Source: Marsupella aquatica
Lineage: Eukaryota > Plantae > Marchantiophyta
NCBI GenBank assembly: GCA_973895155.1
Contig: OZ316893.1
Span: forward strand, 12,230,359 to 12,294,358
DNA: 64,000 bases
Reading direction: 5' to 3'
The translations under genes were made by a program, and so were the position numbers. The notes beneath the pieces were generated by a model. The model worked only from the letters and a program-made list of their open reading frames with translations. It did no database searches and was not told where the DNA came from. This document shows positions 25,885 to 64,000 of the stretch, in pieces. Within the stretch, counting starts at the first letter, position 1. Each line of letters begins with the position of its first letter.

Positions 25885-26187
25885 ACGGTACTGCTCGAGG
25901 GAACGACGACTTCTTCCCTGTCTGCCGTGGCGACGTGGGTGTTCCAAAGGGCGAAACAGCAGACGGTGGATTCTCGAGTGCCATCTCTCTCTCTCGCTCT
26001 GACTTCAAACGAATCATCAATTCAAAGCTCACGCCCAACCCACACACCTAAATGGTCGCGTTCCAATACGACGCACCCTATAATTAGGTTTTGAAGGGCT
26101 AAATTAGTCTCTGTCTCTCGCACACTCGCTTCAAACGAACCGAAATGCACCAATTCAAAGCTCAAGCCCAATCGCACACACCTACAT
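25885..26187 (-). repeat. Inverted diverged copy of the RPN6 leader and first about 33 codons (16905-17208)
   Basis: The minus strand encodes MALENPPSAVSPFGTPTSPRQTGKKSSFPRA, nearly identical to RPN6 17109-17200. DNA similarity extends through the upstream tandem unit. Confidence 0.93.
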
Positions 26188-34749: not shown

Positions 34750-35469
34750 TTGTGGGCAATTGGGAATTGCTTTGGATTTGCACCGCCCCTTCATAGTCTT
34801 CCTTAGAGAAGACAATTGATTTGGGGACCTTGTAATCAGTGACATGTCAAACGCTAGTTTTGACCAGGCTGACAACAATGAGGGGTGGAAGCCTAAACAT
34901 GGCATTGTGAGCAATTTGGATTTGCGTTGGATTTGCTTTGGATTTGCACCGTCCCCTTGAGTTTTTCCGCAAGAAGGCAATTGATTTGGGGAACTCGTAA
35001 TCACTGACATGTCAAGTGCTAGTTTTGACCTGGCTGACAGTAACTAGGGGTGGAAGCCTAAACAGGGCACTGTGATTAAAATTTGGATTTGCACTGGACT
35101 TGCACCGTCCGTTTGACAGTCTTCCTGCAAGAATACAATTGATTACTCGTACATAATCACTGACATGTCAAGCCCTAGTTTTACCCGAGCTGACAGTAAT
35201 GAGGGATGGACACCCGCGTTCACACTGGGGGTAATGAGGTCCGGAAATCGGCTAAATTTGAGCTCTCTTCTCCTCCTCTCCTCCTCTCCCCCTCTCCCCC
35301 TCCTGTCCCAATGACATGGTTCGGTAGGCAATTGATTACTCTCAATCACTGACATGTCATGCGCTGGTTTTGACCGGGCTGACAGTAATGAGGGGATGGA
35401 CACCCGCGTTCACACTGGGGGTACAAGATCCGGAAATAGCTCGATCTGAGCTCCTGTCCTGTCCCAATT
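34750..35469 (+). repeat. Degenerate tandem array of about 160-190-bp units (4 copies), target of the large transposon insertion
   Basis: caattgatt...aatcactgacatgtca..gctagttttgacc.ggctgacagtaa.gagggg.tgga recurs at about 34815, 34980, 35137 and 35330. Confidence 0.85.
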
Positions 35470-35495
35470 TACGGTGTTCGAAATGTTGCGGGGAG
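35470..35495 (+). repeat. Left terminal inverted repeat
   Basis: tacggtgttcgaaatgttgcggggag. Confidence 0.93.
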
Positions 35496-38400: not shown

Positions 38401-39300
38401 TGACCAACAAGTTGAACCTGATGGAATATGACAAGTAAAAACCTAGTTAAAATCAATAACATTAAAAAAATTGAAGCAATGATATAAACCACTGAAACAG
38501 TTTGGAACACTACAATTGAATAATATTTTAAAAACTTTACATTGTTATTTATGACTTACATCTTTCTTGGAGATTTCTGTAAACTGTTTTTTGGAATTAA
38601 GATGATGAAGTCCGCCACATCCCTCTGTGAAAACTGCATGGAATTCCTGCATTGCATAAATATGTTAATTATGATTCAAGGTTGAATTGCATGACTAGTC
38701 CCCAGACTAGTCTTGAACAAAATTATTGATTCATGATCAAGAAAACTTACTGCACTTCCACTAAATAGAGTCTTCCAAGCCCCTGTCAACAATCTACTTG
38801 TGACACCCCCTGCATCTACAGTTTCAGATTCCTCCAGTGTTACTTCTCCACTATGTGTTGTGTAGATTAACTTTGCTGCAAAATCTCCAAATATCTCTTG
38901 TCTTCTCAAGGCTTCTTGGCACATCTTTCGAATAGCAGTTAACTCATCATCGTCATAAAACTGCACAAACAAAATAAAGTTATTTAGATGTATAAACTTA
39001 AATGCAAAATGACATTAAATACAACAAGGCTATAGATAAGTATGAACATTTTCAAGACCGGGTTTCTTTTGTTTCTACATTACCTGAATTCGAATTTGGG
39101 GAACCTGCCTATAGAGTTTCCGAAAGTGAGAAAGTCCAATGTCAGAAATCTGATGGACCCTTAACAAGTATTTTGTCCTTTCAGTTTCTTTTTTGGCTTC
39201 AATGTACATATTTTCACAACTTGTAAGCGTCGGTTCTTCAAGCTGACATTTTCCAATCCATTCAATGTATTCGTCGCGCAGAGAGATAATGCGGGCTTCT

Positions 39301-39756
39301 TGTTGGGTATTTACTCTTACGTCTAGGTAGGTATGACGTGGTTGGTACAACAACGTGGGTTGGTACAACTACGTGGTTAGGTACAACTACGTGATTAGGT
39401 ACAACTATGTGGTTAGGTACAACTACGTGATTAGGTACAACTATGTGGTTAGGTACAACTACGTGATTAGGTACAACTATGTGGTTAGGTACAACTAAGT
39501 TGCACACTATATCATAAGAGGCATGTGTGCTTGGAGAGGTAGAACCAAGGCTCATTGTTATGGAGCCACTTGAGAGATAGGGAGAGCTTACACTGTGGAG
39601 ACTCGGTATAGCCGACGGGCTTAGAGTTCAGTAAAGCTCTCTTGTGTGTTCCCGTGGACGTAGCCTCAAGGAGGTGAACCACGTATCTCTTGTGTCGACT
39701 ATTGTGCGTTGGATGGTTCATGGGCTTGCCGTTGCGATCGTCGTCTATGCTCAACA
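39301..39756 (+). repeat. 5' LTR (456 bp) with internal 18-bp tandem repeat
   Basis: tgttgggtatttac...tatgctcaaca; gtg(g/a)ttaggtacaacta(c/t) repeated about 8-9 times. Confidence 0.97.
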
Positions 39757-39758
39757 AT

Positions 39759-39770
39759 TGGTATCAGAGC
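39759..39770 (+). promoter_or_regulatory. Primer-binding site for initiator tRNA-Met
   Basis: TGGTATCAGAGC, 2 nt after the 5' LTR. Confidence 0.95.
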
Positions 39771-40907
39771 ATGCTTGGGAGGTGACGTGTGTTCGTGACG
39801 GGATTTCATGACGGTTTTTCCAGCATTGAGTGTTGGTGGATTTTCCAGAGTTCCATCGCATGGAACTTGGAGTTTATGGGCTCAACGGATAGATCGGGGC
39901 AAGAGCTTTCTAACGGTGTGAAGAAATCGCTGAACGGAGCTCGTGGTGCAGAGAGATCTAAGTTTTCGTCATTCTGGATTTTGTGAAGAAAGTTGGCAAT
40001 CGACTCGGAGGGAGAAGCGTCAAGTGTTTTGACTCAACGGAGAGATTGAGGCAAGACGATTGTTTTGAGTCCGGGATTGGCTCTTTGATGCAAAGAGGAA
40101 GGCTAAGCAAAATCAATTACCTTGTTGGATTGGTGACGGCACCAAGTGCAATTGATCAACATTCGTTGTTGACAAGGTACCATTTTTTCTCTTTGAAAAA
40201 CTAATTCGAAATTGGCTATGACAATTGAGAGAAATCTGTCATCTTTACCAATTTTTTTCTCCCTCGTTCTTTCCTCGTTTTGGGTGCTTCTTATATCGAT
40301 CTTCACCGCCTCAAAGTCTAGTTTCCAAATCTGAAATCAGATCTTGATTTCGTCAAAACCCGAGTGAGATATCTTGCGTTTGGTGTCGAGGGGTACATTC
40401 TGCCGTGTGTATTTTCTGCGCGCGCGACCAGATTTCGACGACGAAGGGTGGTAGGGGGTTTTGGGGGTTCGAGGACACGTGTCAGCCCCTCGATTGTTCT
40501 TCCAAAATTCCCACAGGGCCTGTACAAGGGTCATAGAATATTCCAAAAAACCAGAGAGCTATTTTTTGACCGTCCGACAAAGATTTCATCCACCGAACGG
40601 TAACTTTTTTGGTTATTTTTGGGCGAGGTCGTAGCCATTGAAGTTGGCAATGCAGCGCACCAATCACATCGCAATTCCGACAACGGGTTGTACTTGGTAT
40701 TTCGGTTATTCCCTGAGGTGGTCAAAAAGGGGGAGTTTCCCAAGGTTTTACCCACCTCGACCGAAATTTGAATAACTTTTCCGTCAAATTTTGATTTTCA
40801 TTTTGGTTTTCAGTATTGGACTCCTAGCTTTGTGGGCTACGCGGCGGTGTTGAGTTTCGAGTTTTTTGAGAAGTTGTGAAAAACAACATTTTTTGTGACT
40901 TTCTCAT

Positions 40908-43900
40908 ATGAGTGATTCGGAGGAGTTTTTCGAAGACGTGGAACTTGAAGCACGAGGATCACCGCGGAGGTTTCAGGGGCAGAGAGAGGAGCAGGAGGAA
41001 GAGCATGTGACACCGATACCATCACCGGTGCGGCGTATGGTGGAGGAAGCAGTACTACTACCGGAGCTCACGGTAAAGAAGAAGATGGGGACTTTCAAGC
41101 TTGGGGGACCCAAGTATGAAGTGACAAAGTATGATGGGCGCTCTGACTACTTGCTATGGGAGAAGCAGGTGAAGGGAGTGCTTTATGCGTCAGGGATGGG
41201 CCAACTGCTGAGCCCTCGTGAAGACGATGTTGATGAGAAACAATGGAACCGCATGCAGGAGCAGGGAGTGTGGTGTGTTACACTCTATCTCATGCCTCCC
41301 ATCATCAAGCAGTTAGGTGCACATAAGGATTGCATGTCCTTGTTTGCGGAATTGCAGAGCAAATATCACCGCAAGGAGTTGTCGAACCGGCTCTACACTT
41401 CCTACAAACTGATGAGTTTCAGGATGAAGGAATCTGGTACGAAGTTGCAAGACCATGTGGATGCTTTCAACGACATGGTCGTTGACTTGGAAAACCTTGG
41501 GGAGACTTTGAATGATGAGACGAAGGCTCTGCAGCTTCTTAGTTCATTGCCTCCATCTTACCAGTCCCTATCACGAGTGTTGTTGCATCGTGATAGGGAT
41601 ACCATTTCATACAATGACATGGTAAGTTCTCTGCTTAGTGATGATCTTCAGTAGAAGATGCACATCACGTCACAGCCTTCATCATCTGGTGCTGCCCTCA
41701 ATGTTAACCGTGGGAGGAGTATGCAGCGACCAATTGGGGACCGTAGAACCCAGTTTAGATCTAAATCCAGATCTAAGTCCAAGGGTAAATCCCCTCAGAG
41801 GAGGCAGGTGACATGTTGGAAGTGCAACCAAGTTGGACACTGCAAGCGAGATTGTAAGGGAAAGGCAGCGGAAACTTCATCGGCAAATGTGGCTAGGGCT
41901 GATGGAGAAGCTGATTTACTCAATGATGAGTATGTTTTATGAAGCTGGGGGTATGCCCTGTGCACGTCATCTAGGAGAGCAGATGATGTGTGGATTCTTG
42001 ATTGTGCTTGCTCTTTTCATATTTGTTACATTCGTGAGTTTTTCAGTTCTTACTCTGTTTCAAACGGTTCAGTTCTAATGGGAAATGATCACTCCTGTCA
42101 AATTGAGGGAATTGGGTCTGTGAAGATTCAAATGTTTGATGGCGCTGTGCGCACAGTGTCCGGAGTCAGGTATGTACCTGGCATGCGTAAGAATCTGATT
42201 TCACTCGGTGTGTTGGATTCAAATGGTCATCAATGGAGCGTTATTGATGGTGAACTTCAAGTCAGGTCGAGAGAGACAGTGATTTTGAAGGGGAGTAGAC
42301 AAAAGAATTTGTATGTGTTACAGGGCAATACTGTATGTGGAGAGGCCAATGTAACCAAGTCTCACGAGGAGATGACTCAACTGTGGCATTCACGGCTAGG
42401 CCACATGAGTGAGAAGGGTTTGGCTATCTTACGGAAGAATGGACTCATTTTTGATTTGCAATCTTGTAAATTAGAGTTTTGTGAGCATTGCATTCTTGGA
42501 AAGCAGCATCGTCGTGCTTTTGGTGTTGGAACTCATCGTTCCAAAGCGGTTCTTGAGTACATACATAGTGACGTGTGGGGTCCATCCCCGACTCCCTCAC
42601 ACTCTGGAAAGTTGTACTATGTATCATTTATTGATGATTACTCAAGATTTGTGTGGATTTATTTCATGACGCATAAGTCTGATGTCTTGTCCATTTTTAA
42701 GAAGTGGAAGGCCCAGGTGGAGAATCAGACTGGAAACACGATCAAGTGTTTGGATACAAGGGTGAAGAGTCTGAGGTCAGACAACGGCGGGGAGTACACT
42801 TCAATGGAATTTGAAGAGTACTGTTCAGAACAGGGGATAACTCGTCATCTCACCACAGTTTATACTCCGCAGCAGAATGGTGTCGCTGAGAGGCTCAATC
42901 GGACACTGTTGGAGCGGTCACGGAGTATGTTGAGCCAATCAGGTTTACCACAAGAATTTTGGGCAGAAGCTGTCAATACCGCAGCTTATTTGGTAAATCT
43001 TTCTCCTTCTAGTGCTATCAATTTCAAAACGCCATTTGAGATGCGCTATAAGCGGCAAGCAGACTATCATGGCTTGGTAATTTTTGGAAGTGATGCATAT
43101 GCTCTCACACCAAAGTAGAATAGGACCAAGTTGGATCCTACCTCCAGGAAATGTGTTTTTCTTGGGTACCAGAGTGGTGTGAAAGCCTATAGGCTATGGG
43201 ATCCTATTGCCTGTAAGCTCGTTGTCAGTAGGGATGTTTCCTTCAATGAATCCAAATTATTGAAGGAGGGGGAGAATACTCAGGTCTCCGGTATTGACAA
43301 AGGAAAATCTCCTATCCCGGATCTCGTTGAGGGGGAGATTGGTTATGAGGTGCATGACCGGAGAGAAGGAGTTGCTCCAATTATGGAGCTGGTTCCTGTG
43401 CCAGAGGAACCAGAGGAGTTTGTTGATGCTGGTGAGCAACAAGTGGATATTGTTGAGCTTCAAATTGTACCAGCACACGCAGATCAACCGGAGTCATCGG
43501 CTAGAAGAACATCTGGTCGCACTGTACGCGCTCCATCAAGGTATGGACAGTGGGTTGATTCATCTCAACTGCAAGAGGATGATTTTACAGCTGATGATGA
43601 GGGTGATGCGTTAATTTTGGAAGAAGGAGAACCTTCTTCATTTCATGAGGCAAGTGCTTCAAAAAAGAAGCAGAAGTGGACTGCAGCAATGCAAACGGAG
43701 ATGCAGTCACTAAAGGACAACAAAACTTGGGAGCTTGTTAAGCTGCCTAAGGGTCAGCAAGTGGTGGACAGCAAGTGGATTTACAAGCTGAAGGATAATT
43801 CCATAGGAGGTGGATCGAAGGTCTACAAGGCTAGATTGGTAGCAAAGGGATTCACACAAGAGAAAGGTGTGGATTACAATGAGGTCTTCTCACCAGTTGC

Positions 43901-45215
43901 TAAGTACTCTACAATACAACTATTGTGTGTACTTGTTGTAATATTTGGTCTGCTCCTAGATCAGATGGATGTTGTCACAGCTTTCCTCTATGGCACATTG
44001 GAAGAGGTGATCTTCATGAGACAACCGCTAGGTTTTGTGAAGAGAGGACAAGAGGAATTGGTTTGCAGATTGCTGAAATCCTTGTATGGGTTGAAGCAGT
44101 CACCAAGACAGTGGAACAAGCGGTTTGACGATTGGATTCGGTCACAAGGTTTTCACAGAAGTGTATTTGACCCTTGTGTGTATTTGAAACCGGTGAAGAA
44201 TGTTGTCTTTGGGTTCATTGTTTTAGTACTTTATGTGGATGACATGCTAATTGTAGCCAAGGATAGGTCTGAGATTGTTAAGCTCAAGGCACTGCTTAGT
44301 GCAGAGTTTAAGATGAAGGACTTAGGGCCAGCTAAGAGGATTTTGGGTATGGAGATCACTAGGGACTTGGAGGCTGGCAAGCTATGGTTGACGCAGAGCA
44401 GTTATGCGAGGAAGGTAATTGCAAGGTTCAACATGGGGAATAGCAAGCCAGTAAGTACCCCGTTGGCTCCACACTTCAAGTTATCATCAGCGTTCTGTCC
44501 TACGGATGACACAGAGAAGGGGTTGATGTCAAAGGTTCCATATGACAAGGCAGTGGGGAGTCTCATGTATTTGATGACTTGCACTAGACCTGATCTTGCC
44601 ATGCCTATGGGCAAGGTGAGCAGGTACATGTCGAATCCAGGGAAGGTACACTGGGAAGCAGTGAAGTGGATTATCAGGTACTTGAAGGGTACCGTGGATC
44701 ATGGTCTTTTATTTGATGCGAATGCAAAGAATGCTAGATCATTGATTGGCTATGTAGATTCTGACTATGGACAAGATTTGAACCGAAGGAGATCAACAAC
44801 AGGATACGTGTTCACACTTGGCGGTGGATGCATAAGTTGGAGGTCTACTTTGCAGAAGTGTATTGCTCAGTCTACTACAGAAGCGGAGTATGTTGCAGCT
44901 GCGGAAGCAGCAAAGGAAGCGATTTGGTTGGATAGACTTATCACTGAAATGGGATTGCCACAGGGGAATGTGAAGCTCCATTGTGATAGTCAAAGTGCGC
45001 TCCACCTTGCTGTGAACCAGGTGATGGACAGCAGAGTGAAGCACATTGACGTCAGGTACCATTTTATCAGGCAGGCTGTGTCTGATAATTTGTTTGAGCT
45101 AGTCAAGATTGATGGTAAACTCAACCCGGCTGACGCATTTACCAAAGTGATTCCTTTGGAGAGTTTCTCTAGACACCATGACGTATTGCAGGTTTTGCAA
45201 TTGCATCACAAGTAG
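40908..45215 (+). pseudogene. Copia gag-pol in one reading frame with three in-frame stops (TAG 41652, TGA 41940, TAG 43116)
   Basis: Zinc knuckle CWKCNQVGHCKRDC, protease WILDCACSFH, GAG-pre-integrase LWHSRLGHMS, integrase HSDVWGP/LRSDNGGEY/PQQNGVAER, RT YKARLVAKG/LYVDDML and RNase H YVDSDY/STTEAEY. The four ORF pieces share the same frame. Confidence 0.95.
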
Positions 45216-45395
45216 AGTTTTCTTAAACATTCATTGTAATTACTGATATATGCTCTTCCTCATTCCTATGTATTAGGCTACGGCTTAGTTCTGGTTTGCT
45301 CTAGTTAGAGAGGGAAACCGGTTTGGTTTCTGTCCAGAACTTCCCGCTGAGGGATCATATACATTGGCAGTATTACTCTCCCCTAGACCAGAGTC

Positions 45396-45405
45396 AAGGG
45401 GAAGA
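45396..45405 (+). promoter_or_regulatory. Polypurine tract
   Basis: aaggggaaga immediately before the 3' LTR. Confidence 0.85.
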
Positions 45406-45406
45406 T

Positions 45407-45863
45407 TGTTGGGTATTTACTCTTACGTCTAGGTTAGGTATGACGTGGTTGGTACAACAACGTGGGTTGGTACAACTACGTGGTTAGGTACAACTACGTG
45501 ATTAGGTACAACTATGTGGTTAGGTACAACTACGTGATTAGGTACAACTATGTGGTTAGGTACAACTACGTGATTAGGTACAACTATGTGGTTAGGTACA
45601 ACTAAGTTGCACACTATATCATAAGAGGCATGTGTGCTTGGAGAGGTAGAACCAAGGCTCATTGTTATGGAGCCACTTGAGAGATAGGGAGAGCTTACAC
45701 TGTGGAGACTCGGTATAGCCGACGGGCTTAGAGTTCAGTAAAGCTCTCTTGTGTGTTCCCGTGGACGTAGCCTCAAGGAGGTGAACCACGTATCTCTTGT
45801 GTCGACTATTGTGCGTTGGATGGTTCATGGGCTTGTCGTTGCGATCGTCGTCTATGCTCAACA
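45407..45863 (+). repeat. 3' LTR (457 bp)
   Basis: By eye it matches the 5' LTR except for one extra T (aggttagg) and one C/T change (gcttgcc vs gcttgtc). Confidence 0.97.
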
Positions 45864-48800
45864 CTTCTGAAAATTTCCCTTTCCCGTATGATGGAGTAAG
45901 CAAATAATCTCTGAAATAATGCTCAACAATCCACAGCATGTTGTTAAATTCAACAATGAAAACTATTCACTTTAAATTTACAAAATCATAATTTTAATGG
46001 AATGCATTCAGCTCACTGCATCTGATGAAAATGAACACTGAAATAAACATGTCAACCATTAATTACCTGAAGATTTGTAATGATCTGTCCAAATCTTTTT
46101 GAACAAACTCAGGAACAAGATCGGGTATGAGTTTTTGCAATTGTTCCCACATGTGCCACCTTGGAATGGCTGCTGCCTCAAAATAGTATCCAAAGTCATA
46201 CTTGGTATACGAACTTAGGCCTTCTAAACCATTTAACACTGGTGTAACAAAATCTTCCAGCATTGCATCTGATAATCCCAATTTTGCTTCTCTTCGATGT
46301 TGAAGGAATTCCAGATCTGCACAAGCAACTGTAGCATCCATTTTATTGCGTTCCTCTACTAAAACGGCATCAAAATTTTCCCAAAAGATTGCCATGGCTT
46401 GATTTGGTGCTTGATCCACAGGCAACTTTATGCCTTTATCCAATTTTTGAAGCCGCTCTTGTGTTGCACAATACGCATCTAGCAGGGCTGATGTCTCTGT
46501 CTCACTTGTTATAAGATCGGCCTCAAATCGGTCATTCTCGGGTGTGCCTGTACAATCACAAAATAGTTCTAAAAATATTCAACCATCCACTCAAGCCTAC
46601 ATATTGTAAGAATCAATCCAAACCCGAATCAAAATCCTGAACTCTAAATCCTGAACCCTAATCAACACACAATTCTGACATTTTCACTTACGTCTTTGTA
46701 GTAATCTTGATTGTCTTTCAATAACCTCTTCATTTTCCAATATAATGGGACTATGAACAGTCCCTACAAGGCTTACTTCATTCTCATGTCTTGAAGATCC
46801 AAAGACTAGGGCTCCTTGTGCAGGTATAGCTTCGTTCAAAACACCTCTGGTTCTTGAAGTTTGAAATGAATGAGCTCGTAAAGGTAAAGTTGGCAGTAAT
46901 AATGCACCTGTATCATGTTTCACAATTACCCAACACATTAGGGTTGGATTGTCAGATTGCTGTCACTCACATAGCCACTCTGTACCCTTTTTAATATATA
47001 TTATGATTTCATGGCAGCACTGTTAACCTACTAACGCCTTACTGTAGACATCTTGAAAAGCCTTACATACTACAGTAAAGCATCTCAAAGCTTGGTATCC
47101 AGATTGAGCTTCGGCCATAACTATTACTCAAGACTTAGATATATAGAAACTTTACAAAAGTTGTATGAGGTCAGGCAAGGGAATCCACATGAAGAGACCA
47201 GAGCATCTAATGGAGAGCAATAGAGCAATAATTAGCACGCTGAGAAAAGCAAAATAATGTCTTGACAATTCCTTATACAAAAGTTGACCAAAAGACCGAT
47301 GACTTAGTATGCCAATGATTTACCATTTAATTACTCTACTCTCCTAAATGCAGGTGTACATTATGATCAGAACTGTGATGAGTGCGATATGATTTCATTT
47401 TACTCAGCAGAACTAAAGAATGTTTTTTGCTTCAAAGCTTTGGCTGGCTGCACACAAGCCTATGATGCTAGACACTCCATTTGTTCCTCATACTAATCAG
47501 CGTTGATGGAAAATACCATGGCTGCTATGGCTTGAAGTGTGTACTAAGGGTCTTCCTCTTGAGCTAAGAAAACATGTACAAACTTGCTTCAACACGCTTG
47601 CAATAAAAAACTCATTGGTCGGTAGTCGATCTTGAAGTGGCCAAACTTTCAAGATTCCCCAATGCTTTCATCAGTTAATTGTTTTGTTGCACTAAAATGC
47701 AAAAGAAGGAAACACCTGAAGCGGGATTGGGACCACAAGTAAGCTTTGGAGCATCAATCACCCCACAACAAGGCAGACAAACAGAACACCACCAGAAGCG
47801 CACAACAAAAACCATGTTGGTCAAAAATTGAGGGGATGCGGTACAAAATGCACAACCAAGAAGAGCAATCATTTGCAGCCCATAGCCTCATTCAGAACAT
47901 GCTTTCATAGATCTTACATATGCATGCTGTGCAATACTAATTTCATAGGTACACCTACAAACTAACCCCCACCCATGCTAACATGTAAGAAATTGAATAA
48001 TTATTAAACTAAAGTGATCTATGGTCAAGGAAACTCAAAGGATGCACGTACTTGAGTCACCATGGGGTGAAGACGAGCTGTCATTGGGCTGGGTTTGAAA
48101 CTCAGAAGTCGAAGGGTTTCCCAATTGAGGTGACGAGCTCGTTAATGGAGATGACAAATTAGAGGATCTTCTTGACAGATTTTGCGGGGCTTCAAACCAG
48201 AACAATGCAATAAGCAATTAGATACCTAATTTGATCAATTACATAGAAGTTACACTGTATAATCCATAAAGCTTCATGGTGTATTTTTCACATCAATGGA
48301 GCTAGAAATGATTTACCTGTTACTCAATATTACTTGTGCATCGATCAAGACAAATGAAGTTGATATCCTTACCTGTCAAAGTTATTGTGGGGTCGTGCAA
48401 GTTTTCTGTCTCCTCAATCCCTTCAGACTCAGAAGCTGCAAAGCTCGAGTTTGAGCTCTCTCTTTGAGTGTTAGAATTCCATGACTGTGAAGGACTTTGC
48501 ACATGTTCTGTTTCATTTTCAAATGCCTGACGATGCTCTGTCGTTGGAGAATCTTCTGAATAGACAAAAGTTTCAACTAATATGCAAATCATATCCAAAG
48601 ACTTGCTGGGAAAGAGCAGAAAAATGTCATAATCTAAGAATCTAGTAACAATGATGACAAAAATGTTTGCTTGCTTTACCTGAACGTGCAGTCGAGTGAC
48701 CATGGATATTTCGTCTGGTATCTCGTTTACATCGACGTGTTCCTTGTGAAGGCACAATAATTGTTGCACCTGAACAACCAGCCGCCTCAACATGGTAATG

Positions 48801-50504
48801 TCTTATTTGTTGTGGCGTCATTTGACAAGAGGGGTCTGGAATGTATACTACTTTATCAAACCGAGACACGTTTCTCCATTCGGTGTCCCCCGATAGAAAA
48901 TATGAATCTAGTGTTGCACCACCTAGTTTGTCCAGGTCGTCTTTGTGTTGCCCAACATTTGTCATTCTCAAAAAGCATCCTAATATGTCAGCGTAACCAG
49001 TATTTTGGGCCCATTCTTGAGATGCCACAATTTCCCGAATATGCCACTGAGCAGTATTTTCCCGGAATTGACCTCCATCATAGACACCACCCCAAGGCGT
49101 TGACCCAGGTAGACTAACATATATTGGAGGCCTGAATTTTTTCACTCTTCGCATGTAGCAACTCTGATTGCCTGTGTCCACTTGTTGTGCCTCCCAAATT
49201 TGTTGAGGACAATATATAGCACGACTCACTGGTTTATCATAATTCCTTTGATTGCAAATTATTGGAGGAGGTCTCGCAATCATCTGTCTCCTTCCTCTGT
49301 TTGCCCCACCTCCACCTCTGTTCCCTCCACCTCCACGTCTATTTGATCCACGTCCAGATTCTCCTTCAGGTTGATAATTGTATTGGTGATACGAGGTTGG
49401 GAATGTTGGAAATTCATATAGTGGAAGTGTCACTGGCTCAGTAGTTTCTCGAGGACCCGATTGTGTACTAGTTCCTAGTGGGATCATCCTTGAATTTCTG
49501 TTGTATCCTTGGACAGGGTTTCTCTGACGAGGATCTCGACTATCAGTAGGTTCATCCATATTGCAATTCTGAATGCAACGCAAGATTGAAACCCAAGATC
49601 CAAATGGCCAAGAACCTGAGGCTCTGCTCTAGTTCATTACTACTTTTGCGAACAGAGTGCAAAGTGTCAAGCTCAAAGGTAGAATCACCGAGTAGTACAA
49701 ATTATCTTATATTATGAGCAGAAAGTAATAGATGTTGTTAGAGTACAGCCACCATTTCAAGAATTTGGTGAACATTAGTATCACATTAACTTCCAGTACA
49801 TATCATATTTGTTAAAAATCATCTCATCATAATGAAGACTAGCTACCGCAGCTCTTTTTAGTAGCTCTTTTTAGCCCTCGGATACATAATTGCCAAAAGC
49901 AGGTTACCGTATTTCTTATTTTCTTTAGAAGACACTGCTACGCATGTAAGATGATTGAACTATTGTAAACTATAGTATTGTAGCTAGTAGTACACTCCAA
50001 ACTATTCAAAGTTAGAGACATGCATGAAAGAAATAAGTATTTTAAAATTGTGTCGATTATTAAGGTCCAATTAGAGACATGCAAAATTTATAATTAACAA
50101 GAACTTTACATGTCACCAAACAATTATGTTTGTTGGATTTGACTTGTCAATGGTGAAGAGTGGGCATCGTGACTTATTCCCCTAGTGAAGGTTGGAAAAA
50201 CTAGTGTGAAGAATATGATTGGTTCATGTGCACGAATGATACATATTTTTTGGTGCCAAATTCCAATAGAAAGTTTGATAGTAAACAAGGCAATAACTAT
50301 TACAAAAAAATCCCTACCATTGATATCTATTGATGAATGGTCAGTAATTTGTAACATTGGTTAGTATGCATGAATTTAATTGTAAAAAACAAACATGATG
50401 TGGTAGCTTGTGTGACAGTTATAACGCATGTGGGATTCATGCCATTTGCCACTTGCAAAATGACAATTAATGCTTGTGACAAATTGGGTTGAGCCTCTTA
50501 TGGG

Positions 50505-51245
50505 ATTCAGGGAGACGCTTCAATGATTTGTCATTCAATGCACCTCGATTCTCCCCCACATCGGGAAATACCTAATGCTCTCTCCCCATTTTTGTGGCCC
50601 CGTTCAGTCTTGTGAAGGGCACAGATTCTGGAGGAGAATCTAATGCTCGATTGTTTTAACTAGGCTATTATAACTGAATGTAGTCGGGTGGCCGAGGGAT
50701 GGAGGCGCAGGGCTGGCCGTGGCAGGGTCCGTGGCAAGTGGTGAGTCAGGCAAGGGTGCTGGGGCTGGCCGTGGCAGAAAGGAAGGAGGGCGGCGTGTGG
50801 GCTGGCCGGGGCCGTCGTGAGTGGTGAGGCAGGCGAGGGCGATGGGGCTCGCCATGGCAGAAAGGAAGGAGGGCGGCGTGCGGGCTGGCCGTGGCAGGAA
50901 GGAGGGAGGTAGCCGGGTGGCCGAGGGAGGGAGGGACTCAGGCGGCCAAGGGAGAGGGGCAGTTGTGCGGCCAAGGAGGAAGGGCGCAGGGCTGGCCGTG
51001 GCAGGAAGGAGGGAGGAAGGTAGTCGCGGCCGAGGGAGGGAGAGACTCAATCGGGAGTCGGTAGTCCCGTGCATTCAGGGAGACGAGTCCCTGCATTGTC
51101 ATTCAATGCACCTCGATTCTCCCCCATAGCCCACCTGAATACTCTCTCCATTTTTGTGTCTCACTTTCAAGCCAGCCCCATTTTTGGGTCCCAGTTCAGT
51201 TTTGAGGAGGGCACAGATTTTTGATTGAGGAGTTCTAATGTTTGA
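50505..51245 (+). repeat. GC/G-rich repeat island bracketed by degenerate direct repeats
   Basis: gggctggccg(tggcag) occurs about 5 times with gaaggagggcggcgtg. The flanking block attcagggagacg..tgtcattcaatgcacctcgattctccccca..gggcacagatt occurs at about 50505-50630 and 51073-51220. Confidence 0.8.
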
Positions 51246-52869: not shown

Positions 52870-53875
52870 TGAGAAAACATGACAAAGCTAATGGCTACCC
52901 TTATACTCTTAGATCTGGCAATTTGCCCCCTCACCCAAGCCAGTTTTTGGTGAATTTAGTAGGAATATTAAATCACTCCTACAAGTTACAAACAAATCCT
53001 GCTACTTATATTATTTGGCAATTCCTCCTACTAATAGATGGATTGGGACACAGGGCACATCTGGGAAATTGATAAATCCAGGCAAACATGAAGGCAAACA
53101 TTGATTTTTGACATTGGCAAGGGACTTTGTAGCTGAGGTGAACAGTTCTGTTGACAGACATGACATGTCTTATGCACAAAATTCAATGATAACACCAATT
53201 TGTCTCTAAATATCAATGGTTTATAGTCTGAAAATCAACACCTGAGCTTCAGAATATCATAACAAAATATCGAGTGAAGTTTTAAAGGAGTTGAGTTGGC
53301 CTTGACATTGATGCTACTGTTGAAGTGGCTCCTGATATTGGTGACCCAGGTGAAGAGCCAGCTCAACCCTTGGGGCTGTACAATGTCTTGCAAGGATGAG
53401 ACACATGGGACAGATTGTAGGAGGTTGAAAAAAATGTTAGTTTGTAGCTTATGTGAGACAACATCTACTATTCATAGTTGATTAAAGTGAATCAAAGAGA
53501 TCTTGTTTGCTCAATGTGTTTCAAGAGTACCCCAAACTTCAAATGTGAGGAGGAGTTATAAATTTCTGAAGTTTGCTCAATATTTGAGTAGTATATGAAA
53601 GGAGTTATAAGTTTCTGAAGTTTTCTCAATGCTTGAATGAGTAGTAAGTTTTGTAAATTGTAATCAAATATTTTGCACATTTTTAGCTTTTTTATAAGCA
53701 AATTTTAACTATTGTCCATTCTTTGTTTTTAACTTAAGTATGTGTGACACTATTTGACTTGTGACCACAATTAGTGTCATACTATATTAGTGTCACACAC
53801 CCTAATTACCATCACTTACCTCAAATATAACCTCACAGTAATTAGAGTCTGTGAGACTACATACTGTAAAGAGTG
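52870..53875 (+). mobile_element. Second, oppositely oriented member of the 14698-15972 TIR family nested in the large transposon (left end not found)
   Basis: It ends ...atactgtaaagagtg|TA. 53300-53875 is the reverse complement of about 14698-15260, and it carries the same VDRHxMSYAQNSMI remnant at about 53150-53190. Confidence 0.8.
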
Positions 53876-55214
53876 TAGTTACCCTTGGAAATATTATAAT
53901 GGATTAACTAGTAAAACATGCAAGCTGGGAAGCAATGGGGAACCATTGGCTAAATGACACTAAGAGAAAATATCTCTTTTTGAATTATAAGTGACCTAGC
54001 AATACTTCAGTTGTTAGTGGCCTATAGGTGTCATGCTAATTACAAGAGATTTAATCCCAAGATTTTTATAGATTACATAAAGACATGTTAGTGACTAGTC
54101 AAACACTGAATCATGTAAATGTTAGTGACTAGTCAAAAAGTCACTCATGTGACCATGGTAGGTGAGTCCTAAGGAAGTCATATAAATAGCAGAAGTAGAC
54201 TTTAGTTGCAAGACATCAGTATACCTTACACCCATTTCATGCAAACTAATTTAGACTACACATTTTTTCATGTACACTTGTGAAATAGTGTTTGAATTAT
54301 TTGTATACCAACACTATATATAATCACAACATTTAGTGTTATATCCATTGCTTTTCTAGGTCCACAGGCATAACAAAGTTACAACTTGAGAATTCCTCCA
54401 AGCACTATTCTTCCTCCTTCAACTTCTTCCCTCCTTTTGTATTTCAAACTTGTCTTTCTCAATGAATGTATTGCTCACTATGTTAGGGTACAAGGCCTTG
54501 GAGGCAGTTTCATTGTTTTTTCACCAGAGCTAATTAATCTATCAGCCATGTAACATCCTAAAGCTAGATAGTGTACCAGGGCTCAAAAGGAAAGTCTAGA
54601 ATTATTTCGTGGTCGCTCGTTTATTCAGAATTTATGCAGGTCTTTAGTGGAGTCTTCTCTATCTAATCACAGTTCACGTGCTTTTGATTCAAGGTAAGAT
54701 CCATCCAAAATGTTCCTTTCTTAATGCCCTTTGCAAGTTTTCCATTTGTATTTTTCAGGACATTCTTGGAGCATTATGCCCACCACAAGATCTGGATCAC
54801 CTCTTGAGTAAGATTGTCCATTACTTTCACTAAATCAAGAAAAAATAAAATCTCTCAAGCCTTCAATATAATAAGGTTTTATTTGCTAGACCATTAGGGA
54901 AACAACCCCTGCAAATGCAAGCTAAAGCTCTCATTTTTTGGTCATATTCCATAATGCCAACTAAACATGACTTTACTACATACTTCTAAAGTCTATTTTT
55001 TGCCTTCAATATTGTGTTTGGTTTTTTATGGTTTACTGGATTTTAATGATCCATGCTCCATATTTTTCAATATGGATGCTAAGGCCAGTTGTTCTTGAAT
55101 ATTTTCCAGAAAAGTTGACATTATTTGCTCAATAATCTTGGAAACTTTTAGTCAATTTTATCAATGCATATGTAGTCGTATAAAATTCAGGAGTCGTAGT
55201 GTTTCTTAAGTCAA

Positions 55215-56130
55215 ATTTTGATTCTAAGCTTGGTTTCCCTGAAACTTTGTCAACATAGTCGTGGCTCTTTTTTCCAAAATCTGGCAAAGTTTGAGTGCAT
55301 TCCATGCAGCAAATGTTGCCCTATAAAATTTGAGCAACTCGCAGCTTTTTTTAGGTCAAATTTTATCGAGTTCATATCTCTTGATCGTTTTGTTTTTTCA
55401 ATTTCGATTCTGAACTCGGTTTTCCCTGAAACTTTGCCAGCACAGTCGTGACTCTTTCTTTTAAAATCTGGTAAAGTTTGAGTGCATTCTGTGCAGCAAA
55501 TGTTGCCCTACGAAATTCGAGCAACTCGCAGCTATTTTTAGGTCAAATTTTATCGAGTTTGTATCTCTTGATTGTTTTGTTTTTTCAATTTCAATTCTGA
55601 GCTCGGTTTTCCCTGAAACTTTGCCAGCACGGTCGTGACTCTTTCTTCTAAAATCTGGCAAAGTTTGAGTGCATTCTGTGCAGCAAATGTTGCCCTACGA
55701 AATTCGAGCAACTCGCAGCTTTTTTTAGGTCAAATTTTTTCGAGTTCGTATCTCTTGATCGTTTTGTTTTTTCAGTTTCAATTCTGAGTTCGGTTTTCCC
55801 TGAAACTTTGTCAGCACGGTCGTGACTCTTTCTTCTAAGATCTGGCAAAGTTTGAGTGCATCCTGTGCAACAAATGTTGCCCTACGAAATTCGAGCAACT
55901 CGCAACTTTTTTTAGGTCAAATTTTGTCGAGTTTGTATCTCTTGATCGTTTTGTTTTTTCAGTTTCGATTCTGAGCTCGGTTTTCCTTGAAACTTTGCCA
56001 GCACAGTCGTGACTCTTTCTTCTAAGATCTGGCAAAGTTGGAGTGCATTCTATGCAGCAAATGTTGCCCTACAAAATTTGAGCAACTCGCAGCATTTTTT
56101 AGGTGTCATTTTTTGGCAAAGTTTGAGTGC
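55215..56130 (+). repeat. 187-bp tandem array (about 4.5 well-conserved copies)
   Basis: Near-identical ORFs recur at 55461, 55648 and 55835 (period 187). Unit: tctggcaaagtttgagtgcatt..gcagcaaatgttgccctac.aaatt.gagcaactcgcagc...ctgaaactttgccagcac.gtcgtgactctt. Confidence 0.95.
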
Positions 56131-57072
56131 ATTTCATCATGAGAATGCTGCCCTAGAAAATCTGAGAGAGTGACAGGTTTCCTTAGGTCCAATACTATCG
56201 ATTTCAATCTCCCGATCACCATGGCGTTTGACAAGACCACCACCATTGTTGATGTGGATGTTCTATTCACAATCTTCAATGGAGAAAGATTTGTAAGTGA
56301 AATAATGCTTTCTGAATTTATCTCTTTGGATTAGGTTGTGTTATTTCAGTTTGTTTGTCCATGAGCTCATTATGCCCTGTCTGTTACAAGTCGCTTTTAC
56401 AGATGCAACGTTGACTCTAAAATCAAGTCTCCCATTGCTAAGTTCATGCACTGGATGACACCCTACTTGATACACCGTATCTTCAATTTTTAGGTATGTT
56501 ACATACTACCATAGGAGAAATCTTTGTGATTCACATTTTGTATGGTGGGCTAATGTTAGCTTTGAATGTGGCTGCTTGCCGTCCAACATAATTTTTGAAC
56601 TCGGATGACAAGAATTCATTCTAAATTTAAGCTTTTTCCTAGGTCATAGTCTTTCTATTGCACATAGTTTGACAAATCATTGAGAATTTAAATCATTTTA
56701 CAGGTTACTCAATATGGAAGGACTGAAAGACAAAATAAAAAAAAGAAGAAGTGAGACTCCAATTCTAAAGGTAAGATATTTTCTCACTACTAATATACTT
56801 TGAGATCATAAAATGTTTGGAATATATTTGAAACCAGTACACATTTTGTGAGGCCAATTCATTGTCAGGTGAATATATTGATCGTTGACCTACTGGGGGG
56901 GCGTGACTTCCCGTATAGTGGAAGAAACCTCATTATCCGGTGGCCGATACAGTCTATATTCTATGGCTGTGTTTTGTGTCCGAAATGTTTAGCATATATT
57001 TGATACTCATCGTAGGTTTATATTTGTTATTATTACTGCAAATTTAAGATGAAACTCGTTTTTCTTTTATAG

Positions 57073-58413
57073 GGCAAAAAAATAGTGAAGGTATCTTCCG
57101 AGAGGTTCTCTGCAGCATCTCTTTATTTCTGTGAAATCATCAAGCTTGCTCAAAAAGCTGGCGGGAAAGCAGGACATTTTCATACTAAAATTCTCTATAA
57201 GTGGTAGTTAGGCGAATACTATCTTTTCGAATATGGAGTACAGATATTATCCGAGGGAAACCTAAAAGGAAATCAGTCAACCTTTTTTGATGGTTTTCAC
57301 AGTTTAAGAAGAGATGGAAGTTGGATTGCTTGGTTTGATGAAAAATAATGGAGTAGCATCAATCATATGATAATGAATCGTTACAATCTATCATCTGTTG
57401 GGAGAGGCTTATCAGATCGGATATAGAAGTTCCGAACTGATCCAGACATGTATCTAAGAAGTAAGAAAGATCATTACCAGAAATTTGAAAAATCCCGTAT
57501 AAAGTTTACAAATTTCACCAAGAAATCTTTCGATTTTGTTGGTAGATTTTCCTCCAGCTATTTGATTGAGGAAGATTTGGAAACACCTTGGGCAAATCGA
57601 ATTATAGTCTGGAGACCGATGATCGAGCCTTTCTACAAGATGAATATTTCATCAAGAGTGGAGATTTGGATGGATGGTGATGAAATCATTGGAGGTCGGA
57701 TGAAAGGAGGTGTTCCAGAGAAAGATAGATCTTTTGTTCAGTTGTTTGTGGAAGAAATATGGAATAATAAATATACAGTGAAGAGGTCAGATACACGATC
57801 TGCATTGAAAAATGTCATGAGGGCAATTGGCCCATTAGTGAACTGGCGAGAAGGGAAAGGTAATCATTTTGTGAGCTTCTACCGTAACAAGTTGAAGATA
57901 TCACAAACACAGGATCCTACTGTGGTTCAATTAGAATTGCTCTATGAGCAATGTGCACATCGATTACTGTTTGAAATTATTTTTGTTCTTTTCTGTGAAC
58001 ACTTTTGGCCAGTGGTGGAGAGTTTTATTGAGATTATGCCTCCAATGATGGAACTTAGCAGTGAGCTTTTGGCTTGTTTTTCAAAGCCTGAACTCATGAA
58101 AAAAGCCATTCATGCATATCCTTTATTCATCACAAAGGATTATTGCAATGAAGTTCATACAGATGTAGATGAAAGCGAGTTTACAATGTTCATGGCATGT
58201 AATCCATCGAATGAAAGTAGAGGTGGAGATTTAGTGATGCTAAAATATGGAATTAAAATTCCAATTTTAGATGGAGATTTGTTTTTTGTTCGGGGTCAAG
58301 ATCCTCATGCTACATCGTATAGAAGTCCACCAATGAAACCAGTATATGTAGTTGGAATTGCCGTAAACCAAAAACTTGGCAATGCTTATGAGTTTCAAGG
58401 TGAAAATAATTAA
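57073..58413 (+). pseudogene. Fe(II)/2OG dioxygenase-fold gene, TET/JBP-like. ORF 57448-58413 is open; the same frame extends back to a splice acceptor at about 57072 through three stops.
   Basis: C-terminal double-stranded beta-helix pattern CNEVHTDVDESEFTMFMAC...RGGDLVMLKYGIKIPILDGDLFFVRGQDPHAT (HxD...H triad, GG-L and GD motifs). In-frame stops at 57205, 57346 and 57424. Short candidate exons lie upstream from ATG 56221. Confidence 0.65.
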
Positions 58414-58854
58414 ATAAATTTTGTGATACACTAAGATTAGCTGTGCGGGTTTTCTTTTGGTCTATTTTTTGTTTATTATTATGGTGGATTTGGTTATAAT
58501 GGTGTACTATATAATTATATCCTCATGCTAAAGTTTTTAGTTTATCTTCTTGTTATAGAATTTTTGTTCATTGGTGCTTGTGGCTGTAATATGACTTGTG
58601 AGTTTTTAATAGGTTCAAGAAAGCCAATGAAAATTTTGAAAATGTCATCTGCTTCCAAATTGGGAATCATCAACAATTGTTTATGAACAGGCAGCGTTGG
58701 GGCCAAGCTTACAAGAGCAATAGTCCATTGTTGTAGAAAACAAAAATTGAGTGACTACTGTTATTTGTATTTGTATATGGTTGCAGGTGTTAAAATTGTT
58801 AGTTGATGAAACTGTGGAGTATAATCTATACTCAACCCACGCTGGACAATCAAT

Positions 58855-60520
58855 ATGAATGATCCAGATTTTCAACAGTATACAGATGTAAAAAGAGCTC
58901 TCGACCTAGGGTACACTATGAATGAATGTGCAGATGCACTTGGTGTACATAGAGTGACTCTATGGAAATGCCTCAAAAACTTTGATATTGAGCATAGAAT
59001 ATATCCCCGATATACTTTAGAAGATGTTTGCTCTCTTATTACTGAGATTGTACCAATCCATGGATATGCTGAAGATTGGGGAATACGTTTCGTTAGAGCA
59101 CGTTTAAAAAGGGCTGGTTATAAAATCTCACTAGCACTTGTCAGAAATGCTTTGGACACATTACTTCCTGGTGTACTTGAAGGAAGGGCACGAAGATGCA
59201 TCATAAGAAGATTTTATGATGTAATTGAGCCAATGCATCTGTGGCATATGGATTGTAAGTAAAACATCTATGTCTCTTCTAAATTTTCCCTACTTTTAAT
59301 TTGAAGTTAACTTTAGAATAGATCCTCAATACTAATAGATTGTTTGGAAATTGAATGCAGCATATGATAAATTGATGCAATGGGGATTCAGAATTCATGG
59401 TGCAATTGATGGGGCTACACACTTTGTTCCATGGATGCATGTGGCATTGAACAAGAAAGCGCAGACTCTATATGTGGGATATAAGACAGCCATACTTAGA
59501 TTCGGTCATCCATTGATGATTCGTTCTGATTATGCAACAGAGCATGTTTTGGTAAGAAGAAACCTTGAAAGAGCAAGACCAAACACAAATTGTTTTCGCA
59601 CGGGGTCTTCTGTTCATAATCAGGTAATGTTTCTGATTAAAATATATAGAGTGGTTCATTTCATATTTCATGTCATCAATTGCAGCTTGGAAATTCTGTA
59701 AATTTGAAATCAATTTTGTGCAGGTACTTATATTTGTATCCTATCATATGTTTTGGCAGAGAATTGAGGCATTTTGGAACTACATGAAACAAAAAGGAAC
59801 TAATCACTTCAAGAAGACTTTATATGACTTATCATGTGTGGAAGGATTTTTACAAATTGATATCCCACTTCATAGATATTGTATGGTTACTGTGATTCTT
59901 CCTTTACTGCAAGAGGCTGTAAATGATGTGGTTTTAACATGGAATGCACATACTGTGAGAGTTGTGCGGACTGGAGGTATGTTGAGACCATCACATATTC
60001 CAGAACTTGTATTTCAATCACAAGAAAGAGAAGCTAGAATTATTCAGCCTCCACCTTATGCCGAAGAAGCTCAGGTGGATATCGAACAAGAAGATGACAT
60101 CATCGATCCAATGGGAATTGATTATTGGAATCACAACAATGATCGTGGAAACTTTGAAGATCGCATAAACGATTTGAATGATGAAGTAAACATTGTTTTG
60201 TATTATTATTAATGTTCATGTGAATTATGAAATGATGATATAAGAAATACTTTTGTTTATATGCCCTTATTCATGTTTTATTTCTTTTGCAGAATTTACA
60301 ATACATTCGTGATATTGCATATGAAAGAAACCAAGTGAGAGTCACAATTGCAAAAGACAAATTGCGAATGCATCTTCTTCTTTCTATAGAGTGTCAAAAT
60401 AGTATGGACGCTTCATTGGACTTGGAGGACTATGTACAAAATGAATTAGGGCTACCTAATTTGTCAGATGGTAGATTATGGGCCTTAAGATCCTTGCAAC
60501 AAACATTACAGATTATATGA
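58855..60520 (+). CDS. IS3-like (IS3EU-type) HTH + DDE transposase, 4 exons (58855-59254, 59361-59623, 59760-60185, 60293-60520), 438 aa
   Basis: HTH GYTMNECADALGVHRVTLWKCL; second HTH WGIRFVRARLKRAGYKIS..VRNAL. Spliced core: RRFYDVIEPMHLWHMDSYDKLMQWGFRIHGAIDG...GHPLMIRSDYATEH...GSSVHNQRIEAFW...WNAH. All three GT-AG introns are phase-consistent and there is no internal stop. Confidence 0.9.
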
Positions 60521-60639: not shown

Positions 60640-63020
60640 AAGTTTTGAGCCCATAATTTTGCTCTCATCCTAGTATTTAACCTAGCTTTGGACCCTTGTC
60701 TGAAAATGCCAATAATTAAATCCTTGATTTTTTTCATAAATTTGCATCCAAGACTAAGCATGCTTGGTATTTTGATTCCAAATCCACTCTCACATTGTTG
60801 GTTTGAAATCTCCTTGGCCAGTTGTAGTGGGGCAAGTTTGATTCAAGTCCTTTGTATTTTGTTATAATGGTCCTCCTATTTACCCTAACTTTGGACCCTA
60901 ACTAGCTTGTCTCAAAAAAATGCCAAGAACAAATCCTCAATATTTTGTTGTGTATTTATAGCATAGACTGAGCCCAATCAATATTGTGATTCAAAATCCA
61001 CTTACACTTTGAAGGTTAAATCTTTCCTAATGGTGGTGGTGGAGCAAGTTTGTGATCTACCTTTGTATTTTTTGTCATGGTAGTCCCATTTACCCTACCT
61101 TTGGACCCTTGACTTAGACAATGTCAATAAATAAATCTTCATTAATGTAATGTGTATTTACACCCTAGACTAAGCCCAGGACCAAGCTTGACCTGGTGAT
61201 TCCAACTTTGCTCTCACTTTGTGGGTTCCATCTTTCTTTGCTCACTTGTGTGGTGGAGCTATTTTCTTTATTGTCCTAAGTTGTATTTTTGTTATTTACT
61301 CGCAGTGACCCTAGCTTTAGACCCAACCCAGCTTGTCTGAAGAAACCAGATCCTTATAACTTGTTTATGTTGTACACCCTCCATTACAATGATTGTTGTC
61401 ATTGGACAAGCTCTCATTTTGTTGGTTTCACCTTTTTTAAGTCACTTCTATAGTGGAGCAAGAGTATTCAAGTCATTTCTATATTTTGCTCCAGGAGAGT
61501 TTATTGTCCTTTAGGCCCTTGTATCAAAATGCCAAACGTCAAATCCTCATAATTTTGTCACAAGTTCACACCCTGGACTAAGCATGGTATTTTCATTCAT
61601 AATTTGCCTGTCACATTGCTGGTTTGACATTTTCTTGGTCAGTTGTGTGGTGGATCAAGTTTGTTCTCATCCTTTGTATTTTGGATATGATCTTCTCATT
61701 TACCCTACCTTTAGACCTTGATTGAGAAAAATCCCAAGATACAAATCCCCATAATTTTGTTGAGTATTTACACCCTTAGTAGACTGAGCCTGGCTTGGGT
61801 CATTCCAAATCCACTCTCACTTTGCTGGTTCAGCATTTTCTTGGCCAGTTATGTACCATGACAATATACACAGTACCATGACAAGTATACAATAAATGGA
61901 GAAATTTACTTGTCATGGTCTTGGCCAGTTATGTACCATGACAAGTATACAAAGTTAGGGTTAAATGGGAAGACCATGACAAGTAAATTTCTCCATTTAT
62001 TTACACCTTTGATTGAGTCTGGTTTGGTGATCTCAAACCCACTTTTATTTTGCTGGTTGCACATTTTCTTGGGCAGTTGTGGGATGGAGCTCGCTTATTT
62101 AAGTCCTTGGTATTTGTGTTATGGTTCTCCCATTTACCCTACTTGACTTTGGGCCTTTGTCATAGAAAAATGCCAAGAAACAAATGCTCATGGTTTTTTT
62201 TTTTGCATTTACACCTCATGCTCATAATGTGAATCAAAATCAGTTCTCGTTGATTTCATTTTTCCTTAGTTAGCTATGTGAGGGAGCAAGTTTGTTCACG
62301 TTCTTTGTATTTTGGTGAATGATGATCCTTCCATTTACCCCACTTAACTTTGGAGCCTTGTCTAAGAAAAATGCCAAGAAACAAATTCACATGATTTCTT
62401 TGTGTATTTACCCCTAAGGCTAAGCCTGATATTGTGATTTGAAATGTGCTCTCACTTTATTGGTTTCATTTTTCATAAGTCAGTTGTGTAGGGGAGAAAG
62501 TCATTTGTATTTGGTTAATATGAGCTTCCCATTTACCTTAGCTTTGGATCTTTCTTTCAAAAAAATGTCAAGAAGCAAATTAACATAACTTTTTACACCC
62601 TAGATTTAGTGGGCCTTGGTGATTCCAAATTTGTTCCCACTTTGCTGTCAGTTTGGCCAATTGTGTGGTGGTGCAGGTCAATTCAAGTCCTTTGCATTTT
62701 TGTTGTGCTCTTCCCATTTACCCTAGCTGTGGACCATTGTCTTAATAAAATGCTGAGAAACAAATCGTCATATTTTCTTTGTGTATTTACACCATAGAGC
62801 GATACCCAAATGTGTTCAAGTTATTTGTATTTCTAAACAGTGTTGGTATTTACTCTAGTCTGGACCCCTTTGAAAGAAATTGCCAAATAATAAATGCTGA
62901 TAGTTTCTTTGTGTATTTTTTAAGAGACACAGCATGACCGACCTTGTGATCGCAAATTGGTCCTGACTTTGGTGGTTCTACCTTTCCTTGAACTGTTGTT
63001 GTTGTGGAGCAAGTATGTTG
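60640..63020 (+). repeat. Degenerate tandem array of about 200-230-bp units (about 11 copies) in the right subterminal region
   Basis: Recurring tttacccta(g/c)ctttggacccttgtc..aaatgccaa.aa.caaatcc..tgtatttacacc..gactaagc..gtgattccaaatccactctcac..gtggagcaagtttg. Confidence 0.85.
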
Positions 63021-63952: not shown

Positions 63953-63978
63953 CTCCCCGCAACATTTCAAACACCGTA
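63953..63978 (-). repeat. Right terminal inverted repeat
   Basis: ctccccgcaacatttcaaacaccgta, the reverse complement of the left TIR with one mismatch. Confidence 0.93.
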
Positions 63979-64000
63979 CCCAATTACATGGTTCTCGTCT

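Follow-up and report, generated by a model that had tools for sequence, protein, structure and literature searches.

The window considered here is a 64,000-nucleotide stretch of Marsupella aquatica (Marchantiophyta) DNA from contig OZ316893.1, and it contains a complete DNA transposon that, judged by its sequence, is of the IS3EU/GingerRoot type. Inside the element the order is: a minus-strand gene with a HECT ubiquitin-ligase domain, split by a Copia retrotransposon; a 187-bp tandem array; a gene resembling those of the TET/JBP dioxygenases; and the transposase. The dioxygenase-like gene is our main subject: its intact relatives are probably TET/JBP-type enzymes that use Fe(II) and O2 to modify 5-methylcytosine (5mC) in DNA, which would help the element to escape silencing. 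The features, in window coordinates, are:

35470-63978, no strand: complete DNA transposon, IS3EU/GingerRoot-type; 28,509 bp (some 21.9 kb once the nested Copia is subtracted)
35470-35495, plus strand: left terminal inverted repeat (TIR), starting TACGG; preceded by the target duplication CCCAATT at 35463-35469
37425-49628, minus strand: multi-exon gene with a C-terminal HECT ubiquitin-ligase domain; HECT exon 37425-38165, the rest exon-sized frames, interrupted by Copia
39301-45863, plus strand: nested Copia long terminal repeat (LTR) retrotransposon with a 5-bp duplication (CTTCT), inserted in a reading frame of the HECT gene
55214-56104, no strand: tandem array with a 187-bp unit in 4.8 copies (92% matches), lying some 1 kb upstream of the TET-like exon
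56714-56770, plus strand: tentative upstream coding exon for a basic peptide resembling a nuclear localisation signal, with a GT donor that matches the acceptor at 57073 in phase (sequence only)
57073-58413, plus strand: main exon of the TET/JBP-like (CMD1/PU-type-like) dioxygenase gene, the sole family-profile match within the window
58855-60520, plus strand: DDE transposase, modelled as four exons with three GT-AG introns, 438 amino acids (aa), no internal stop
60650-63000, no strand: right-arm repeats of about 200 bp, degenerate (families D12, D15-D17, D19)
63953-63978, minus strand: right TIR, ending CCGTA; followed by the target duplication CCCAATT at 63979-63985

An earlier note on this DNA had proposed that the dioxygenase gene is transposon-borne, and an entire element can now be delimited around it. 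Among 7220 pairs of TAYGG..CCRTA termini tested in the window, the pair 35470/63978 is the best, with 25 of 26 bases complementary (the runner-up has 18), and the same 7-bp target duplication, CCCAATT, lies on both sides. Assignment to the IS3EU/GingerRoot type is based on the TA..TA ends with TIRs, the 7-bp duplication and a predicted integrase-like DDE transposase without HHCC. According to the extracts of the papers used here and below, IS3EU and GingerRoot are a single lineage with TA..TA ends and target duplications of usually 6 bp (PMC10045372), IS3EU ends are defined by TAYGG..CCRTA termini (PMC12730594), and 7-bp duplications occur in 5 of 77 GingerRoots, whose reported range is lycophytes and mosses (PMC6839031). 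The transposase has the residues D133/D190/E224 and a helix-turn-helix-like part at its N-terminus, and matches Pfam rva_4 (PF24764; 59.5 and 31.1 bits, cut-off 26); set by eye against the DDE sequence that PMC6839031 gives for GingerRoot, it is identical at about 51 of 112 core positions.

For the gene itself, the earlier note had described an HxD...H iron triad with TET/JBP-like spacing, a last strand without the 2-oxoglutarate (2OG)-binding Arg, and a transposase about 440 bp downstream in the same orientation, and in these particulars it was right. The triad codons lie at 58156 (His), 58162 (Asp) and 58306 (distal His), the motifs HTDVDE, GGDL, DGDLFFV and PHAT are all present, the two His are 50 residues apart, as in two phage Tet_JBP proteins, and the last strand, PVYVVGIAVNQK, has no Arg; the transposase ATG at 58855 follows on the same strand after a gap of 441 bp. 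What had been overlooked is that 57073-58413 is not open: it contains in-frame stops at 57205 (TAG), 57346 (TAA) and 57424 (TAG), codons 45, 92 and 118. An intact homolog of 479 aa from a public assembly, P0001, is 53% identical to the window copy over 441 aa, colinear through the stops, which face its Leu78, Glu125 and Arg151, with no frameshift. Because this homology runs straight across all three, the window copy is most likely a pseudogene; an intron removing the stops was ruled out, as the alignment passes them ungapped. A shorter product, starting from the ATG at 57448, is conceivable and would hold the entire catalytic half. Identity to P0001 peaks in the C-terminal half (60-72% per 40 residues). 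A splice-acceptor-like pyrimidine tract and AG directly precede 57073, which is therefore taken as an exon start rather than a start codon; additional small exons at 56.2-57.0 kb are possible.

A profile of six sequences searched against 1.84 billion proteins recovered 38 at E<=0.001; one of these, P0033, a 1219-aa repeat surface protein, was a false match and was dropped ahead of counting. Counts given here are from an alignment of 40 rows and refer to rows with a residue at the column in question; those for the pocket refer to the 21 rows with both His, with the most distant member, P0035, set aside. The earlier note had named conservation of the HxD/H residues across copies as a check, and within the family they are conserved: the first His is found in 28/28 rows, the Asp in 28/29 and the distal His in 24/24, with a second Asp two residues further on in 28/30, giving a conserved family core of His-x-Asp-x-Asp...His-x-Thr. 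Full-length intact members, including P0001, P0010, P0012 and P0025, are 427-479 aa long. Apart from P0035, the homologs are Logan, ENA, NCBI or JGI records. No related locus turned up when viral and metagenome contigs were scanned.

At the site of the 2OG-binding Arg, all 19 rows have Val, Ala, Thr or Ser and none has Arg, so that by this alignment the loss is a trait of the family and not decay of the window copy. The register of the last strand was set from the PU-type TET rows of IS3EU elements in Table S1 of PMC12730594, which share F-x-N-x-x-H-x-D, H-x-T and I-N-x-x-L with the family. Arg loss is not unique to it: in 14 of the 27 IS3EU rows of that table, compared by eye, the last strand begins with Arg in six, His in six, Pro in one and Ser in one, and the Figure 7 legend names H, D/E and H as the sole residues shared by every lineage. 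The deepest contig from read run X1 over 58300-58678 differs from the window at three positions, and since every one of these is at 58406 or later, its last strand is the same; X1 may itself be the source of the window. Of the two readings of the missing Arg in the earlier note, an inactive enzyme is unlikely for a family that has lost the Arg as a whole but retained the triad.

Several comparisons point to a TET/JBP identity. Against PDB, the family profile A6 placed CMD1 (7CY4) first (E 6.1e-4), with the Thr eight residues before the first His (H-8), the HxDxD and the distal H-G-T in register. In the ESM Atlas, the top clusters for the window ORF were Tet_JBP (score 0.97, 25/30 matches); for P0001 the top cluster was a Mucoromycota set (0.95), PF20515 and Tet_JBP clusters scored 0.93, and 17/30 matches agreed. 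Sub-cut-off Pfam matches were obtained to Tet_JBP for P0020 (E 2.9e-4; one of 35 proteins) and to the Tet-like PF20515 (2OG-FeII_Oxy_6) in four of 35 proteins (E 0.0014-0.049), and also for P0005; an annotated phage Tet-like protein likewise falls under the Pfam cut-off, at 32.2 bits. With a profile of the catalytic half, 9/10 phage Tet_JBP proteins score above the best of 2200 shuffles, five of the six weak tblastn matches of P0001 to phage are inside Tet-like genes, and family and phage profiles compare at 83-85% probability. By eye, the D-F-x-N-x-x-H-x-D, distal H-x-T and Q-I-N-x-x-L motifs of fungal PU-type TETs match the family. P0035 (Planoprotostelium fungivorum PROFUN_13478, a hypothetical protein) has R-Y-S in its last strand and reaches 58 bits when scored with a profile from which it was left out; in the tree it falls with the family, on a long branch and away from the phage TETs, and it is a putative bridge between the family and ordinary TET/JBP. 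With its last-strand Arg intact, PROFUN_13478 itself seems to be a TET/JBP-like enzyme that has gone unannotated. Matches to a Vibrio phage methyltransferase (from P0005), a hexosaminidase, USP16 and PHROGs were taken as chance or uninformative.

A number of results weigh against a TET-type 5mC enzyme, some of them against the identity itself. The CMD1 match is modest, an unrelated protein standing at E 1.4e-3 in the same A6 search; with profiles A3 and A5, CMD1 did not come up in PDB, and A5 gave a beta-hydroxylase at E 1.1. The Atlas recognition values (2273 and 1867) are lower than the guide value of 2300, no member reaches the Pfam gathering scores (best 20.6 vs 34.9 bits for Tet_JBP and 19.1 vs 27 for 2OG-FeII_Oxy_6), and single-sequence searches of Pfam, PHROGs and PDB with the window ORF and P0001 gave no Tet match. 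AlphaFold, run on P0001 alone and with a six-row alignment, returned no usable fold (mean pLDDT 35 and 40), and Foldseek with the second, failed model found no match at E<=0.001. The phage scores are biased, as the seeds were picked for matching P0001, and 0/18 phage matches of P0005 lie in Tet-like genes. Other points bear on substrate and setting: the base-stacking site, six after the Arg site, has Ala (7), Thr (7) or Val (5) in 19 rows and no aromatic; Asp at H+5 is found in 0/21 rows, the 5mC-reading residues of TET2, NgTET1 and CMD1 not being retained; and the element is CpG-depleted, as other repeats are, with no sign of lasting protection. What stands of the earlier claim, besides carriage by a transposon, is the likeness to TET/JBP, from the best PDB match, the Atlas and sub-threshold Pfam; structure prediction did not confirm the fold. 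The predicted double-stranded beta-helix of TET/JBP type is nevertheless very probable for the family. Because both the canonical last-strand Arg and the stacking aromatic are absent, the family is classed here as TET/JBP-like and kept apart from the canonical members.

How might such an enzyme work without the Arg? CMD1, which the earlier note had offered as precedent, retains Arg410 and so is a precedent for another co-substrate only, not for Arg loss: in that enzyme Arg410 points away, Trp358 blocks 2OG, and Thr337 (H-8) and Thr399 (distal H+2) are essential ascorbate contacts (PMC7854593). In the family the equivalent of Trp358 is absent from 21/21 rows, the Thr337 site is Ser or Thr in 19/20 and the Thr399 site is Thr in 17/21, where phage TETs have Asn and Val; CMD1 residues Trp358, Asp350, Phe416 and Arg418 lack equivalents in the family (Trp and Asp missing from 21/21 rows, no aromatic), and Asn occupies the base-reading site (the Arg418 position) in 17/19. 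The aligned residues indicate a remodelled co-substrate pocket. Tentatively, 2OG may be held by another residue, for which a conserved Arg five after the distal His (14/19 rows) is the candidate; this Arg could be a replacement clamp or a DNA contact. Basic residues at distal H+9/+10 were rejected as a substitute, since they are not conserved. Use of ascorbate, as in CMD1, is a weaker candidate.

A CMD1-like hypermodifier, which would use ascorbate instead of 2OG and write a bulky DNA mark (glyceryl-5mC, for instance), overlaps with the favoured reading and, as a distinct proposal, seems rather unlikely. It draws on CMD1 as the best solved-structure match, on the kept ascorbate-contact sites, and on a 2OG site without Arg, where small last-strand residues leave room; the loss of the four other CMD1 residues and the Arg410 of CMD1 itself count against it, and Thr at both sites is also found in fungal PU-type TETs. 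The family might instead be an active 2-His-1-carboxylate oxygenase of a TET-like branch with another substrate: thymine, N6-methyladenine (6mA), RNA, or a protein, for example one that partners the HECT ligase. That the stacking aromatic and an N4-reading Asp/Asn are missing from the whole family would suit this, as would the weak reach of profile A5 to a beta-hydroxylase, and CcTET shows that transposon TETs can move to 6mA (PMC12730594). Against it, every named close relative acts on DNA pyrimidines, 5mC is the means of plant transposon silencing, and a conserved N-terminal Arg (14/16 rows, P0001 position 271; a candidate counterpart of the TET2 R1261 / CMD1 R244 type) fits DNA binding, as do basic motifs; we regard a different substrate as improbable. 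A catalytically dead fold that binds or shields methylated DNA, countering silencing in the manner of VANC, perhaps at the 187-bp array and together with the HECT ligase, is more doubtful again: the lost distal Arg and aromatic, the CpG-retaining array upstream of the TET-like gene and the plant Vandal precedent (cited in PMC12730594) could be read that way, but three iron ligands and a further Asp that are near-invariant among proteins 20-30% identical argue for metal chemistry. That the likeness is superficial and the gene an unrelated cupin-like passenger, as the missed Pfam cut-offs and failed AlphaFold models would allow, is very improbable when Tet-like families come out of the Atlas, of Pfam, of the PDB profile search and of the motif comparison alike, and P0035 bridges the gap.

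Returning to the TET/JBP-type reading, DNA 5mC is on balance the expected substrate, and iron binding and an anti-silencing role are inferred for the family. Intact copies would express an Fe(II)/O2 enzyme acting on 5mC in DNA; this modification would loosen silencing, letting the neighbouring transposase be expressed in the plant host; and a disrupted copy such as that in the window would depend on intact sister copies. The HECT ligase, which stands where fungal elements have an alpha-kinase, may be further cargo with an anti-silencing or regulatory role. A bolder and distinctly speculative version is that land plants have TET-type enzymes in the form of a transposon-spread family that has given up the canonical 2OG clamp, using ascorbate or a relocated Arg and writing a 5gmC (glyceryl-5mC)-like or new base on IS3EU/GingerRoot elements, with the HECT ligase completing a two-part anti-silencing kit.

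The 187-bp array has a CpG observed/expected ratio of 0.95, where 1-kb bins of the element give 0.03-0.77, and is also the deepest bin in read coverage. A second CpG-retaining repeat island (50690-51060, ratio 0.78) lies upstream of the HECT gene; it is possible that both islands are promoters or target arrays. CpG depletion of the element overall implies that protection, if there is any, is incomplete or short-lived.

TET-bearing IS3EU elements are known from rust fungi and one truffle (Kojima 2025, PMC12730594). Like the window element, those of rust fungi (PU-type, PF20515) have TAYGG..CCRTA ends, a TET gene between the transposase and an enzyme gene on the opposite strand, and the D-F-x-N-x-x-H-x-D, distal H-x-T and I-N-x-x-L motifs, with the last-strand Arg missing in 8/14 rows. 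The window element differs in its plant host, its HECT ligase in place of the alpha-kinase, and its 7-bp duplication and length of about 22 kb, compared with 6 bp and 8-13 kb; the family of the window gene is also separate in sequence from the PU-type TETs: it lacks the last-strand Arg as a whole, has H-x-D-x-D, and conserves an Arg five residues after the distal His. CMD1 of Chlamydomonas is carried by the DNA transposon DNA-1_cRei, and other algal TETs are also found in transposons (bioRxiv 2022.06.16.496473). It shares a green-lineage host and transposon carriage with the window gene, as well as Thr at H-8, HxDxD and distal H-G-T with the family, whereas its transposon is a different one and its Arg410, Trp358, Asp350, Phe416 and Arg418 have no counterparts. 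GingerRoots of Selaginella and mosses have a closely similar DDE core, at about 45% by eye, along with TA..TA ends and, in the 5 of 77 already mentioned, a 7-bp duplication, but are 3.9-12.9 kb long with TIRs of 100-150 bp and captured host fragments; the extracts of PMC6839031 do not mention TET, dioxygenase or HECT. Phage Tet_JBP proteins (PF12851) and Naegleria NgTET1 have a similar G-x-L...G-D-x-x-F-x-x-G core, and the phage proteins the same distance between His; they differ in keeping the last-strand Arg and aromatic, and form a separate, fully supported branch of the tree.

Contigs assembled from read runs show the region to be multi-copy in four runs from four studies and three organisms, with many variants, including internal deletions; one from run X5 covers 58141-59090, joining the catalytic half to the transposase start. 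The HECT exon matches Pfam HECT (PF00632; E 3.2e-8, 34 bits), the tentative 5' exons of that gene (46063-46578 and 48320-49628) have no Pfam match, and a literature search found no paper on an IS3EU element with HECT cargo. The nested Copia is not part of the ancestral element; its LTRs are near-identical (a 300-nt core is 100% identical), with an 18-bp tandem array within each. A segment at 53040-53879 is matched at about 90% over about 800 bp, in reverse orientation, by 14694-15522 outside the element; it is probably another small repeat inserted in it, and its CpG observed/expected ratio is near 0.03.

RPN6, an ARID/ELM2/Myb gene and a Copia lie in the neighbourhood. RPN6 scores 668 bits against chain Q of 8AMZ, a plant proteasome, 452 against human and 355 against yeast, which marks the window as plant DNA; a non-seed plant would fit the range reported for GingerRoot. 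An inverted duplication (16860-17208 vs 25885-26187, 92%) of the upstream region of the intronless RPN6 flanks RPN6 and the ARID/ELM2 gene; a degenerate 165-bp tandem repeat at 34763-35460 lies immediately left of the insertion site of the element, and simple arrays of 18-19-bp and 35-bp units are found at 11.4 kb and 30.3-31.5 kb.

TET-like enzymes are stated not to have been identified in plants, although oxidised 5mC has been reported there (PMC11317529, 2024; PMC13638503, 2026, both in extract). A land-plant family of transposon-borne TET-like genes appears to be new: no report of a land-plant TET-bearing transposon was found in the open literature, the Iyer/Aravind surveys (2009, 2013, 2014) and Repbase lying outside that search. 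The family would extend the strategy of a transposon carrying its own methyl-eraser from fungi and algae to land plants, and its remodelled pocket would be a natural test of TET co-substrate switching, so far known only from CMD1. It is a concrete candidate source of oxidised 5mC in at least some plants, and the intact members P0001, P0010, P0012 and P0025 make the question of plant TETs testable.
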